Part shown: in pieces, positions 1,362 to 46,603 of the stretch | Position numbering within the stretch: position 1 is the stretch's first letter | How the letters are laid out: the number at the start of each line of letters is the position of its first letter | Origin: Eledone cirrhosa | Lineage: Eukaryota | NCBI GenBank assembly: GCA_964016885.1 | Contig: OZ024742.1 | Span: 345,464,001 to 345,528,000, forward strand | Direction of reading: 5' to 3' | DNA: 64,000 nt | Translations under genes and position numbers: made by a program | The notes under the pieces: model-generated | The model's database searches: none | The model's input: only the letters and a program-made list of their open reading frames with translations | What the model was told of the DNA's origin: nothing

Positions 1362-1556
1362 TAACAAAGGAATTGTGGTAAGGAACCAGATGGACCATAA
1401 CGCACCAGAGTACTCAATACTTAGGGTAGTAGAGTAAGAAATAGGAAAAAGTATGACCCCGACGGCAGAGCTCAAGCCGTTTCGACGGCTATTTCTGTCC
1501 AGAAATAGCCGTCGAAACAGCTTGAGCTCTGCCGTCGGGGTCATACTTTTTCCTAT
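1362..1556. mobile_element. PLE pseudo-LTR fold-back, family A
   Basis: 57-bp inverted arms 1441-1497/1500-1556 plus a 79-nt tail 1362-1440, flanked by (TA)n. The same sequence terminates the GIY-YIG-bearing element at 13931-15530. Confidence 0.85.
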
Positions 1557-3266
1557 ATATATATATATATACATATATTATATACTTTATTAAGACTAGG
1601 TGGTGTTTCTTTTTACTCTTCAAAGGTTCATTAGACAGGGTTATTTCAAATCTACTTCAGTATTGAGTACTCTTTCTCACGCCCGCCAGTATCAGTATCA
1701 AGCGTATGTGTGTGTATATATATATATATATATATATATATATATATATATATATATATAAAGAGAGAGAGAGGGGGGGGACTGAAATAGAGACAGGTGT
1801 ATGTATTTGGGTATGTGTTTGGATGTATCTGCGCTTTTGTGTGTCTGTGTGTGATTGTGTGTGCATGCGTACATGTGTGTGTGTGTGTGTGTGTGTGTGT
1901 TGAAATTCTGTCGGTCACTTTATCTGGGAGAGAAAGAAATTCTCTATTAAATCGTTTGAAGTTTTACTGAGCATGTACAGGTCATTAGGAAATACGGAAT
2001 GGAGATTACAGAAAATGTATTGATAAGCGACCGGTGGTGAGGTTTGAGATAAGAATGATTTAAACATTTACTACATTGATGGGGAAGGCAGATTCTCTTC
2101 TTTTATGCGATGGCTATAACAAACGAAGTTGGATTCTGAACAAAATTGAAAGGTCTAAAAAAAGGCACTTCCAATTTTATCCAAACCTCAACACCTTCTT
2201 CACAGAGAAGGGATTGATAAAGACGAAGTTGTTTCCTTCTCGTAAATTTATTGAATGGCGTGTAAGAGTGGTGAGCATGGGCCTGAGTGGTTGGGCCGAA
2301 TTTTAGCATGCTTCTACATACCGAGAACTCAGTGCAGGGTAAAGGCATCAAAGACTGACGGTCAGGGTAAATTCTAGATCTATTAAGGTCTTTTACTGGC
2401 TCTCGATGGTGGTCTTCGTCTACGGGGTCTCTGAAACACATTTATATACTGCGTGTACTATCAGTTTCTTTTTTCATTAATCCGATTTCTGTGTACACTG
2501 CATCAGTTACTGTAACCTCCTACACTTGGGGAAGGAGAGTGGATTTCCTAAAAAGAAACAGATACAATATCCTGATGTAAAACAAAAGTGAATGCACCAT
2601 TACATGTGTGTGTTTAAATAGCTCTCTTGACACGACTAATCAAAGAATTACAATTCTGAAGTATTTCTAAATCGAGAAAAGAAATTGTGTTTCTGTCAAT
2701 AGCTTAATATCGATTCGAGACTTTAGGATAATACTCATAGATCAAGACAAATGGCCAAAATGTCAGATAGTAGATGTATCACTAATTGGAATTAAGCGAT
2801 CGATACTGGAGTGAATTGCCTAAATTGATATTTTACAGAGGCGACTGTAGAATTTGTTGATTTTTGTCTGGAAAGTGTCGATAAAAAAACATTCTAATCA
2901 CAGGAATTAAGAAGTTTATCTGAAACAAGAGAATGATTTGAGATTTGGTTAAACAAATTGAAAGATAACTTGACAGCGATTTAGTGGTCCGTTGTGTCAA
3001 CGATAACAACGCACTTTAGATCCTAGCTCTGACTGTATGTTTCCCTCAGTATATATATATATATATATATATATATATACATATGTATGTGTGTGTGTGT
3101 CTGTCTGTCTCTGTGTGTGTCTGTGTGTCTGTGTGTGTTTATATTGTATTGCATCGTCGTATAATTTTTGTAAGTGTTTCTACCGAACTTTACTGACTCT
3201 CCAATTCGGAGAGTACCTTGATTTGGTCTCGTGAAAATCTTTCTCTGCAGTTCGAATAGAGGTAAT

Positions 3267-3385
3267 TGTTTCTACTTTAGGCACAAGGCCAGCAATTACC
3301 CAGTGCATTACTGGTACTTTATTTTATCGACCCCGTAAGGTTGAAAGACAAAGTCAACATCGGCAGGATTTGAACTCACGAGACC
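3267..3385 (-). mobile_element. 5'-truncated SINE
   Basis: Same SINE core. TSD AATAGAGGTAAT at 3255-3266 and 3386-3397. Confidence 0.85.
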
Positions 3386-3686
3386 AATAGAGGTAATGCC
3401 ATTGAGTTTGTCAATTTCTTAGCCTCTATGATCTTTAATTATTTGCCGTGCATATGAAAAGCCTTCTCTTTATTTCGTTATTTCTATACTTAACGACATA
3501 TTCACTCAATCTTAACATACTTCCCAAAACATCGTAACGGATTAACTGTTTCCTTGTTTACTTCATTTGTTGAAAGATAAGGCTTCTGAAAAAAGACAGA
3601 TGTGTGGCCAGTGGCGCTCTGTGTAATGGTAATTCAACCTTCCGGAGTATGCGCTGTTCACTATTATATATATATATATATATATA

Positions 3687-3894
3687 TAACGAAGGAAATG
3701 TGGTAAGGAACCAGGTGGACCATAACACACCAAAGTACTCAATACTTAGGGTAGTAGAGTGGGTAATAGGAACGAGTAGGACCCCGACGGCTGAGCTCAA
3801 GCCGTTTCGACGGCTAATTCTGGACTGAATTAGCCGTCCAGAATTAGCCGTCGAAATGGCTTGAGCTCAGCCGTCGGGGTCCTACTCGTTCCTA
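3687..3894. mobile_element. PLE pseudo-LTR fold-back, family A variant
   Basis: Inverted arms from 3766 to 3894 with GAATTAGCCGTC duplicated at the centre, tail 3687-3765, in (TA)n. Confidence 0.85.
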
Positions 3895-4002
3895 TATATA
3901 TATATATATATATATATATATATATATATATATATATATATATATATATATATATATATATGTGTGTGTGTGTGTATGTGTGTGTGTGTGTGTGCGTGTA
4001 TG

Positions 4003-43326: not shown

Positions 43327-44399
43327 ATATATATATATATATATATATATATATATATATATATATATATATATATATATATATATATTTATATATATAT
43401 ATATCAAGTAAGTATGTTTTGAAACAGTGAGCGAGTTTGAAATTAGAAAATATATAGCTTTCACCGTATTTTTGACTAAAGGAATTTTAGCTTGATAACG
43501 GGGTTTAGAACCCTCAGATAAATGGAAAAAGATGAGTATTGACGAAAAACGTTGCAACCAAAAGAAAACAGGAAGATGATACTTTGGTTCGTGAAGACGT
43601 TCCATGGCAATGAACGGAAAAAAGTGAAGATAATACGTCGCTATGTAGAGAGTGAGAACAAATACACGCAAAGACAAAACCACGTTTATGGTATAAATGA
43701 AGTCGTAAACTAATATTCTATTTAGGAAACCGAATGGTTCTCAGCTTCAGAGTTAGAATAATTTGAATAAATTAATAGAACGAAAATTACAGAGGTTATA
43801 AAATCAATAATAAATATATACATACACACATCTATATATGTACATACTCGTGCATACGCGGAATCACCCGTCATGTATGCATATACACGTAAACATAAAC
43901 ACGCCCACACATACATAAACCTGCGCGACACATGTACCCGCACACATACGAACGTATATACCAGATACACATAAAAATATATATATGTGTGTGTGTGTGT
44001 GTGTGTGTGTGTGTGTATGTGTGTGTGTGTGTGTGTGTGTGTGTGTGTGTGTGTGTGTGTGTGTGTGTGTGTGTGTGTGTATACATATAATTATATAAAC
44101 GTATATAAATATAAACACATAAATACGTATATAGCGCACGCACACACATATCTACAGGTAAAAGCACATATGTTCACCAAACTACGTCAACCAAAACGCA
44201 ATGTACACTTATACGCACCTTACATACGTGCAAACACGCATACACGCATACACACACACAAAACACAAAATACACATATACACATATACCAGTATATATA
44301 ATATAATATATACTCCTACAAATACAAGCATACATACGTACGAGAAAGTATACATACCTTCACAAAACATACGGGTAAGATATACTACCCTATACAAAA

Positions 44400-45390
44400 G
44401 AGTAATAGTATAAACATAAAATATACTTAGCTACCACATCAAGACGTAAATTATCCACGTATTGTGCGTACTGTCCGTTAGGGTATAATGTGGAACTGTA
44501 ATACAGGAAAGTTTTATGCAATTTGTGTTTACAAGCCGAAATTGCCTCAGATTTTTTGTTTAAGATGTGGTCATTGGCGTAGACTATTTCCAGGGCTTCA
44601 GCGGCCCAAAGATCCCATGGTCGTTTATTTCTGTTATACGATCTAGCTTTAGCTAGGATCTCCCAGTGTAACCTATATTGGGTGTCGTTGTCTTTTAGAC
44701 TCCAGATAGAAGCTGAAAGGGAAGGGACGTCATATTCCTTTTTAAAGGGTTAAGAAAAGAATGGGTGTGCATGTAAAGACGCTACTTAAATCTATTGGCG
44801 GTTAACCCTATGTAGGCCATACTGGACGTGGGTGTTTCGACCTTACATTTGTAGACAATGTTACTGGAGAGGCATTTCCCGGATAGAGGGCAGTCAATCC
44901 GATTCCTACAATTACAGTTAGTACTAGCTACCGGGTTGCATGTGTTCCTACGTCTAGGTAATTTAGCTAAATTTGAAGCAGTGATGTTATGTGCAATGTT
45001 AGGGGTCGTAGAGTAAGATATTTTAATGGTATTTCCATTAAAAATGTTATTATATTAATGTGGTGAGGGGAAATTCTTCTTAATAAGGGATAGAAATATC
45101 TTAGCTAATAGTGTGGCCACCTCCATATTATATGGTGGGTTATACACTGTAATGCGTCGGGATCTACTTTTCCTTGTTCTATGCTCATATTTAATATATG
45201 CTACCTTATCGACAAATCCAGCCCAGCAAGAGCTTCATTGTAATATGTAGAATGTCGGTGAAAATATGCTCATTTGTAGATAGACGGGAAAGCCTCAAAG
45301 AAACGTTTCTTACCAGGTTCTTGGTTATGCTGGCCGGATGGTTAGAATGCTTAATTATGTAATTAAGCATATCATTCGGCTTTCTATATA
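44400..45390 (-). pseudogene. degenerate PLE thumb/GIY-YIG fragment
   Basis: Manual translation gives AYIGLTANRFK*RL..H and SLSASIWSLKDNDTQYRLHWEILAKARSY, plus a CNCRNRIDCPL-like linker. Confidence 0.75.
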
Positions 45391-45482
45391 TTTATCCTTA
45401 TCCAGCCTTCTTTGGATTTTATTCTTCACATTCATTATTATTATTACTATATATATATACATATATATATATATATATATAT

Positions 45483-45992
45483 TAGAATAGGGAAGTAAGG
45501 ATTCTATACAAAACAGTGGATATAGAGAAAAGATGAAGTTATATATATTTAAGGGTCTGTTTTTCTTACAATCCCCTATCCCCTTTTGAACTATTGACCA
45601 TTAGATTAAATATTACATTCACAGCATATTTTTCAAATCAACTTCCTCCCTTACAAACTAGTTCTCATTTCCAACCAACGTTTCAAGAAGCAGGATGGAA
45701 GAAAAGTTATTCAAACTTTCGATTTTGATTTTAATTTTAAACCTTTCTTTTTTTACTCCTATCAACTCTTTTTAATTTTTTACACTACATTTGACAAGAT
45801 GGATTTTAATACATCGAAACCGGTAATTTTCTCATATACTTTATATACTTCATAAACATTTTTTTAAAAAGAATTGTCCCTCTCTTTTTTTAATAACATT
45901 ATCTTTACAATAATGTCACTTTGACGAATCAAAAAAGTAAAACAGACCCTTAAATATATCTCCCGTGCTATTTCCAACTTCATCTTTTCTCT
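45483..45992. mobile_element. old PLE end with inverted tail
   Basis: 45520-45570 is inverted to 45935-45992. Contains TTGACAA-GATG..CATC-GAAA-CCGG-TA at 45791-45825. Confidence 0.6.
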
Positions 45993-46239
45993 CTCTCTCT
46001 CTCTCTCTCTCTATATATATATATATATATATAAATATATATATATATATATATATATATATATATATATATATATATATATATATATATATATATATAT
46101 ATATATATATATATATATTTATATATATATATATATATATATATATATTGTATATGTATATAGTGTATATATATATGTGTGTGTGTGTGTTTGTATGTGT
46201 GTGTGTGTGCATGTAAATATATATATATATATATATATA

Positions 46240-46603
46240 CAAAAGTTCTATTTAAATTGTTGGGATACAACAAGCAAATATTTTTATAACTGATATAAAG
46301 CACTCAACAAATATTTGGAGTAAAAATACGATATTAACAAATAGAAACTATATTTATAAAACCATATCTATTTCATTATACATATTTCAAGGATACCATG
46401 TTAAATTATGGTATGCCTTCATCAGACAAAATACAATATATACCAGTTTTATAAATAAACATTGACGTACCCTTTCAAAATGCAACCGTTACTTTTGGAT
46501 GATATCAGGATGAAGGCATACCATAAGTTAACATGGTATCCTTGAAATATGTATAATGAAATAGATATGGTTTTATAAATATAGTTTACATTGTTAATAT
46601 CGT
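46240..46603. mobile_element. PLE 3'-end fold-back, family B
   Basis: Long arm 46240-46505 (-) with hammerhead at 46369-46433. The short arm 46510-46603 starts at GATGAAGG inside the core. Confidence 0.88.

Follow-up and report, generated by a model that had tools for sequence, protein, structure and literature searches.

Why should insertion after insertion in one stretch of DNA consist of two unequal copies of the same 3' end, joined head-to-head within (TA)n? The question is raised by 64,000 nt of the Eledone cirrhosa genome (contig OZ024742.1, positions 345,464,001 to 345,528,000; the whole of this stretch is hereafter called the window), which is dense with Penelope-like elements (PLEs) in a microsatellite-rich genome of 3.0 Gb. 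Counts of end pairs, together with a duplicated hairpin predicted beside both ends, suggest that these insertions are 5'-truncated PLEs, mostly of the Hydra clade, which were probably formed by programmed twin priming on a single RNA.

Head-to-head insertions in the window

Each of the 13 insertions named in the initial annotation is built from a minus arm and a plus arm that meet at their 5' ends; both outer ends lie in (TA)n, and one of them extends further than the other, as that annotation had described. Here, S denotes the short outer end, which lies at an internal site of the element, and L the tailed outer end, which lies further along at a second site. In families A, B, C and K and in insertions 29655 and 16745, hammerhead cores or open reading frames (ORFs) point towards the (TA)n ends, and the outer ends are therefore taken as 3' ends; the direction of the arms was assumed for 35783 and 45483. 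The tail lengths given earlier were recovered on re-measurement: 79-80 nt in family A (1362, 3687, 13726, 13931), 88-90 nt in family B (5496, 18310, 46240), 94-97 nt in family C (8621), 113 nt in family D (42924) and about 38 nt in the Neptune-like 29655. The 13 insertions (names in brackets) are as follows.

1364..1553 (1362): family A, Hydra-type PLE; L arm minus (tail 1364-1443, S hairpin 1412-1435), S arm plus
3689..3892 (3687): family A variant; L arm minus (S hairpin 3737-3760), S arm plus, a few bases duplicated at the joint
5496..6347 (5496): family B; L arm minus (tail 5496-5586, S hairpin 5559-5578), arms of 380 nt, hammerhead cores at 5682 (-) and 6251 (+)
8622..8992 (8621): family C; L arm minus (S hairpin 8685-8709), hammerhead core at 8890 (+)
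13727..13919 (13726): family A; S arm minus, L arm plus (S hairpin 13847-13870)
13932..15527 (13931): family A; short-ended minus arm of ~1.5 kb with a hammerhead at about 13946-14039 and a CxCx5C linker remnant; tailed plus arm 15418-15527 (S hairpin 15456-15479) with TG at the internal site; arms overlap by just ~30 nt
16746..17999 (16745): Neptune/Nematis-type; tailed minus arm with a GIY-YIG ORF piece at 17193-17966 and a 60-nt tail; S arm 17944-17999
18312..24982 (18310): family B palindrome with 3.3-kb arms; reverse transcriptase (RT) pieces 20296-21633 (-) and 21618-22562 (+), hammerhead cores 18408 (-) and 24795 (+), tail 24892-24982, S hairpin 24899-24918
29660..35410 (29655): Neptune-type; long short-ended minus arm with ORF pieces 33049-34872 and nested inserts; tailed plus arm 34862-35410
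35784..36033 (35783): S+L palindrome with a shortened tail of 19 nt (about 48 nt in another copy, L289); clade not assigned
42926..43325 (42924): family D; S arm minus, L arm plus, tail 43213-43325, S hairpin decayed (intact in the L073 copy)
45483..46011 (45483): degenerate S+L insertion, the weakest of the 13; two ~20 nt matches with a (GA)n expansion between them, tail about 39 nt, ORF and hammerhead not confirmed
46240..46604 (46240): family B; L arm minus (S hairpin 46302-46321, hammerhead core 46425), S arm plus

End pairs across the genome

Arms were paired in a genome sample of 1.46 Mb, made up of the window and 14 stretches of 100 kb whose coordinates were picked by hand, and were classed against 20 natural read-through copies. 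One of these stretches (G000:C5:60000001-60100000; L111-L120) is a ~17 bp satellite with 0 TA runs. Identity and microsatellite filters, which were introduced after the first-pass result was known and which also removed some genuine AT-rich copies of the window, left 55 classed pairs, namely 54 S+L, one S+S and no L+L; four of the 54 come from the window itself, and 72 ends stayed without a partner. Among pairs spanning <=2 kb, 50/51 were S+L (binomial test against 0.5, p=2e-14). The unfiltered first pass had given 14 S+S and 2 L+L pairs and was discarded, these being mostly matches of one AT-rich reference to microsatellite at ~62-70% identity. An independent segment method yielded 49 S+L pairs with 0 S+S and 0 L+L, and 60 family A loci fetched via either end yielded 49 S+L, one S+S, one L+L and nine without a classed partner. 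TA-terminated arms ended at S or L in 182/189 cases. The pairing of ends is thus non-random, and the rule of two unequal ends put forward in the initial annotation is real, although not new, having already been published for PLEs.

Raw Illumina reads from three runs of restriction-site-associated DNA sequencing contain loose (TA)n ends of family A both at S (2,771-3,176 reads per run) and at L (8,198-11,517 reads per run), together with opposite-strand joints. Because the raw reads show both ends and the joints, an assembly artefact is excluded for the palindromes of this family.

The arms overlap in 45 of the 54 S+L pairs and do not in the other nine; the earlier statement that overlap sets these insertions apart from twin priming is thereby weakened. 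In 47 pairs with measurable reach, the short-ended arm was longer in 21 (among them 13931 and, by eye, 29655), the arms were equal in 18 and the tailed arm extended further 5' in eight. The arms share sequence variants as well: 22 rare alleles are common to both arms of the 18310 palindrome, next to 59 arm differences of which 51 are private to one arm, and in family K private variants are common to both arms in 4/4 informative insertions (a fifth was uninformative).

Two further observations concern individual palindromes. At 18312-24891 of the window, the inner half holds 51 of the differences between arms and the outer half 8, most of them private to one arm, a gradient which simple gene conversion suits poorly and for which a polishing effect is possible; the majority of the other palindromes lack such a gradient, and no general inner-to-outer mutation gradient was found across the palindromes, where a satellite swamped the totals. 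On G000:C4, at about 100051995-100070288 (L106-L108), a perfect palindrome with 9.1-kb arms and 0 mismatches is either a very young event or an assembly artefact.

Two internal sites and two predicted hairpins

In read-through copies, S and L are both internal UA sites, each preceding a copy of the same predicted bulged hairpin by 6-9 nt; along the element, the hammerhead is followed by the S site, hairpin 1, the L site, hairpin 2 and then the start of the ORF. The initial annotation had placed one start of reverse transcription at an internal TA and the other at the RNA end; the former agrees with S, whereas the latter fails, since L is internal and is followed by hairpin 2 and the ORF start. 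Both sites carry UA or AUAU, the same as the (TA)n target. In family B, L is an internal AUAUAU that precedes a second copy of the tail hairpin and then the ATG (8 loci), and an internal L with hairpin 2 and ATG also occurs in families A (locus L023), H, K and Q. In family D, a tail-anchored pattern without the motif placed L internally, with hairpin 2 and an ATG after it, in most of the 100 matches listed out of 162 (control, 34).

The hairpin consensus reads RCUC, upper stem, 2-nt UH bulge and GAGY, usually followed by RCU, and a two-hairpin pattern built on it matched the genome 1,452 times against 3 for the reversed control. Out of 20 such matches that were fetched, 15 became references, 2 looked like adjacent insertions of different families and 3 were unused. 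With the 2-nt bulge register, upper positions 1-3 form Watson-Crick pairs in 31, 29 and 17 of 38 hairpins (19 references), while other registers or offsets give at most 15 pairs per position; position 2 shows four pair types, and total pairing reaches 77/114 against a shuffled mean of 43. The upper stem of the predicted hairpin thus covaries. The spacing from hairpin to hairpin (76-144 nt) equals the tail length, and most ends fall 6-9 nt 5' of their hairpin, with modal offsets of -8 and -6 in family A. The basal stem is ACUC/GAGU at S and GCUC/GAGC at L in 18/19 references each, a difference partly set by the search pattern; in family H and in the published sea cucumber element Hydra-1_Ajap, GCUC/GAGC is present at S and L alike. 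A few family A copies have L arms piling up at the foot of hairpin 1, from which no claim is made.

By eye, the published Hydra-1_Ajap consensus contains the motif twice, ~61 nt apart, before the ATG; the consensi of Hydra-2_Ajap and of coral Hydra-2_Amil contain it once in the tail, sea louse Hydra-1_Crog has variants of it, and Hydra-1_Obim and Hydra-1_Amil show a loose likeness only. Neptune-type families have different motifs. The family of 29655 carries AATAT-N6-9-TGTAC at both sites in one read-through copy (L269), on which the duplication there rests because a search for further ones gave 16 matches and 0 read-through; for the family of 16745, about 6 of 47 matches show ATATCG at S as well as at L.

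Proposed programmed twin priming on one RNA and its alternatives

The pairing of ends and the position of the hairpins could be brought together as follows. Two RT-endonuclease molecules, probably as a dimer, would load on hairpins 1 and 2 of a single RNA, and the (TA)n target would be cut on both strands. Each 3'-TA end could then pair with the UA lying 5' of one hairpin and prime a cDNA. Reverse transcription begun at L would copy the tail and either halt near S, leaving arms without overlap, or displace the S cDNA and recopy the same RNA, producing overlap. Joining of the two cDNA 3' ends through microhomology or template jumps would complete the palindrome, and the tail would correspond to the RNA between the two loading sites. 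As the arms copy through the hammerhead cleavage site, the templates would have been uncleaved or re-ligated. The idea of two first-strand cDNAs from opposite target strands, already present in the initial annotation, is borne out by the arm geometry and by the cleavage and extension of both strands in vitro reported for an anole PLE (Frangieh et al., 2024; PMC11167929).

A single RNA offering two loading sites is expected to give the observed 54:1:0 of S+L, S+S and L+L, while two free RNAs, both sites being present on each, should give S+S, S+L and L+L at about 1:2:1. Compared with twin priming, shared variants and the exclusivity of S+L are compatible with, but do not single out, an origin of both cDNAs from one RNA molecule, and an internal primer site with microhomology to the target is found at S and L alike; a primer at the RNA 3' end is absent, L being internal. 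The longer S arm (21 pairs against eight) is not counted in favour of one RNA, since a pair of RNAs would give it as well. Two S+L insertions (L003:1237-1634 and L048:1504-1831) have 140-200 nt of non-element sequence between their arms, which suggests template jumps at the joint.

Several points weigh against twin priming on one RNA. Overlap in 45/54 pairs would need strand displacement, and the tailed arm reaches further 5' in the eight pairs noted above. Variants common to both arms would arise equally if two RNAs came from one locus, or through gene conversion. Coupling of the 5' ends of the two arms speaks for one RNA, with a spacer of <=30 nt in 11/17 pairs with repeats of at least 100 nt against 6.2 under a pooled null (P=0.002), although the pooling of families lets shared pause sites inflate that significance. 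For the hairpin itself, 0/20,000 shuffles paired as highly as the real stems, a test that overstates significance because the families are related; 6/38 hairpins lack any upper pair at the 2-nt bulge; and the basal stem is circular for 15/19 references because the pattern used to pick them required its letters, which does not apply to the upper stem, the bulge or the end positions. Counts of G-U against C-A in the stems (10 vs 7) do not separate action as RNA from action as DNA, and the duplicated motifs of the Neptune-type families are weaker. Loading, dimer formation, displacement and joining are all proposed steps.

The initial annotation had proposed that the two templates are RNAs paired through the palindromic stem III of the hammerhead. 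Stem III is indeed self-complementary in several families, with 8-mers such as AUGCGCAU, AUGAUCAU, ACGAUCGU and AUAUAUAU, and a strict 8-mer test found self-complementary, differing sequences in 9/20 references; dimeric minimal hammerheads are moreover established in PLEs (Cervera and de la Pena, 2014; PMC4209133). Such pairing gives no reason for the constant combination of S with L (1:54:0 against the predicted ratio of about 1:2:1), the arms run through the cleavage site, the family A stem III of 5 bp can fold as a monomer, and a tandem transcript might pair its own two hammerheads in cis. Naiads, which lack canonical hammerheads, still show inversion of the copy and a tail on one side only (Craig et al., 2021; PMC8557442), and catalytic mutants insert normally (PMC11167929), pairing itself lying outside that experiment. 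This proposal is accordingly judged highly improbable, and nothing in the present analysis ties the ribozyme to the end pairs. If two RNAs are involved, they might instead be held by an asymmetric protein dimer, with one subunit always beginning at hairpin 1 of its RNA and the other subunit at hairpin 2 of another RNA from the same locus. Overlap would then arise without displacement, the greater reach of the S arm is equally expected and the conserved difference between the two basal stems, partly pattern-set as it is, would find a use; yet family H and Hydra-1_Ajap have the same basal stem at both sites, and arms of one haplotype with coupled 5' ends require extra assumptions, which makes this arrangement unlikely, if worth keeping in view.

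A single cDNA started at L could fold back, copy itself to the internal TA and join the other target end, as the many near-perfect palindromes (equal reach in 18/47 pairs) and the shared variants would allow, and self-priming has been proposed for PLEs (Arkhipova et al., 2013; PMC3846280). Fold-back, however, cannot yield a short-ended arm that outreaches the tailed one, as is seen in 21/47 pairs, among them 13931 and, by eye, 29655; nor does fold-back give a reason for the second hairpin copy at S. Because 9/54 pairs do not overlap, a single-template fold-back does not explain all junctions and is excluded as a general rule; it may still make some joints, and as an account of the insertions it is very improbable. 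Alternatively, the hairpins could be DNA signals at which an endonuclease cuts a longer cDNA or tandem intermediate 6-9 nt away, the ends being products of resolution. An origin of the tail in endonuclease-mediated resolution has been suggested (PMC8557442), earlier work cited in PMC11167929 found the tail to be needed for endonuclease recognition of DNA, and the stem counts fit either nucleic acid; reverse transcription starts mapped directly at the tail boundaries of the anole element (PMC11167929) and the UA microhomology to the target at both sites suit priming, so that the DNA-signal reading would appear quite unlikely. Against all of these, twin priming on one RNA remains the preferred reading, with the reservation that the arm overlap, which could arise on one RNA by strand displacement, would depend on that step.

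If one RNA is copied from both broken target strands, a long-known and unexplained PLE signature would be accounted for. It is conceivable, though we would stop short of expecting it, that the PLE tail is generally the spacer of a bipartite RNA template and that obligatory programmed twin priming is the normal route of the whole PLE class, without true second-strand synthesis by the element. A small covarying duplicated RNA element predicts both ends within a few bases, the two-hairpin rule is usable for curating PLE boundaries, and the system is a candidate for RNA-programmed writing of DNA at both strands of a break.

Clade and coding evidence

PLE identity, as stated in the initial annotation, is supported by pseudo-long terminal repeats (pLTRs) from partial tandems, the inverted 5'-truncated copy, the one-sided tail and ORF motifs. 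Locus L145 has an uninterrupted ORF of ~737 aa that contains YRDD and, towards its C terminus, a Y.G motif, and two ORF pieces of Neptune type matched GIY-YIG in Pfam (E 2e-4 and 8e-5); of the other pieces submitted, three had no Pfam match and one a weak PDZ match. The family B ORF carries the Hydra-clade marks RWR and DKT (in place of GxKF/Y and DKG), CxCx5C, late CxxC and CxH, and among 112 aligned sequences an RWK-like motif occurred in 82, DKT in 96, DKG in 0, CxCx5C in 95, CxxC in 106 and CxH in 88. The CxCx5C linker also appears in pieces of families A and K, and insertion into (TA)n is a further mark of the clade; families A, B and K are predicted from these motifs to belong to the Hydra clade. 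Families C, D, F, G, H, J, M, N, O and Q were placed via the pLTR motif and ORF starts or pieces only. At 29655 and 16745, a CX2-5CxxC linker before GIY-YIG indicates Neptune/Nematis, the two being not separated. A search of metagenome contigs for relatives confirmed none.

Hammerhead cores were recognised by pattern in families A, B, C, G, J, K, M and O, and were not confirmed for 45483, 35783, 5349, 16745 and 29655; an Rfam scan returned no hammerhead among its best 150 matches, only sub-threshold microRNA-like ones from palindromes and microsatellites. In L292 and family A copies, the core UUGA-N-AA is a U3-A8 variant, which is known from Schistosoma PLEs (PMC4209133). Four family A pLTR-ORF junctions lie ~3.54 kb apart in a head-to-tail array at G000:C1:91476590-91487299.

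Relation to known systems

In L1 twin priming, the internal primer site is variable in position. Both target ends prime on one L1 RNA, and the cDNAs join by microhomology to give an inversion (PMC2912911), a geometry without overlap that is the one seen in 9/54 pairs here; unlike L1, with one primer at the RNA 3' end, the present elements would use two internal, fixed sites, with inversion as the usual outcome and arms that mostly overlap.

The architecture, the two starts of reverse transcription and two-strand priming are not new, because they are already in print (PMC8557442; PMC3846280; PMC11167929). PMC8557442 describes an inverted 5'-truncated copy and a tail of 30-40 bp that is present on one side only, Naiads included, and head-to-head palindromes were noted in PMC3846280; the explanations published are self-priming on an antisense template and resolution by the endonuclease. 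The present insertions share this inverted copy with a tail on one end only; they differ in that pairs have been counted (54:1:0) and each end is tied to a cis-element. They resemble the Hydra-clade PLEs of PMC8557442 in RW[K/R], DKT, the CxCx5C linker, late CxxC and CxH, a C-terminal endonuclease, a pLTR hammerhead, (TA)n targets and the inverted 5'-truncated copy, and differ in tails of about 76-144 nt against the 30-40 bp stated for PLEs. The duplicated hairpin does not appear in the passages of that paper that were covered, and the word 'hairpin' has 0 occurrences in its text, though its consensus file contains the motif.

Poseidon PAc of Anolis (PMC11167929) is similar in that two internal reverse transcription starts bound the tail, both strands are cut and extended, a dimer is predicted and hammerhead cleavage is dispensable, insertion proceeding with a dead hammerhead. 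It belongs to another clade with another motif, and its starts sit in the ORF; the accessible part of the paper reports no target homology there, and it neither mentions a repeated motif nor offers a model in which one RNA yields inverted arms. By eye, and as a lead only, its RNA has GGCCA-N3-4-AGCC-N3-5-GACA twice, ~41 nt apart, with the second copy just 5' of the mapped +111-118 start. The hammerheads found here share type I cores and a palindromic helix III in the pLTR with those that are the focus of PMC4209133, and differ in showing no sign that the ribozyme sets end pairs. A literature search, with subscription papers and the PLE papers of 2004-2006 largely outside it, found no duplicated hairpins at PLE tail boundaries and no PLE twin priming. 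The architecture is thus known, the duplicated cis-element is likely new and the mechanism is testable.

Other features of the window

Four further PLE insertions, the first and the second of which were absent from the earlier list, lie among the 13.

5350..5463: S+L insertion with a 37-nt tail; clade not assigned
25013..27829: family Q, Hydra-type; L end 25013, RT pieces from 25574, inverted repeat 25259-25565/27523-27829, no S end found in (TA)n
36274..36343 (+): family H tail-only insertion that begins at the S hairpin, with (TA)n on each side
36379..42525 (-): young family K Hydra-type element; S end 36379, ORF 40729-42522, 5'-truncated onto (TA)n with no partner arm

The segment analysis found three tail-only insertions flanked by (TA)n, including the one at 36274-36343. 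ORF pieces at 50005-54764 resemble what we take to be a Helitron Rep-helicase, and duplicated pieces embedded in (CATA)n at 55951-59170 presumably resemble the restriction-like endonuclease end of a non-LTR element. One SINE-like short interspersed repeat recurs at 305-509, 3263-3378, 9582-9767, 10559-10749, 13610-13704, 47909-48337 and 61865-62375.

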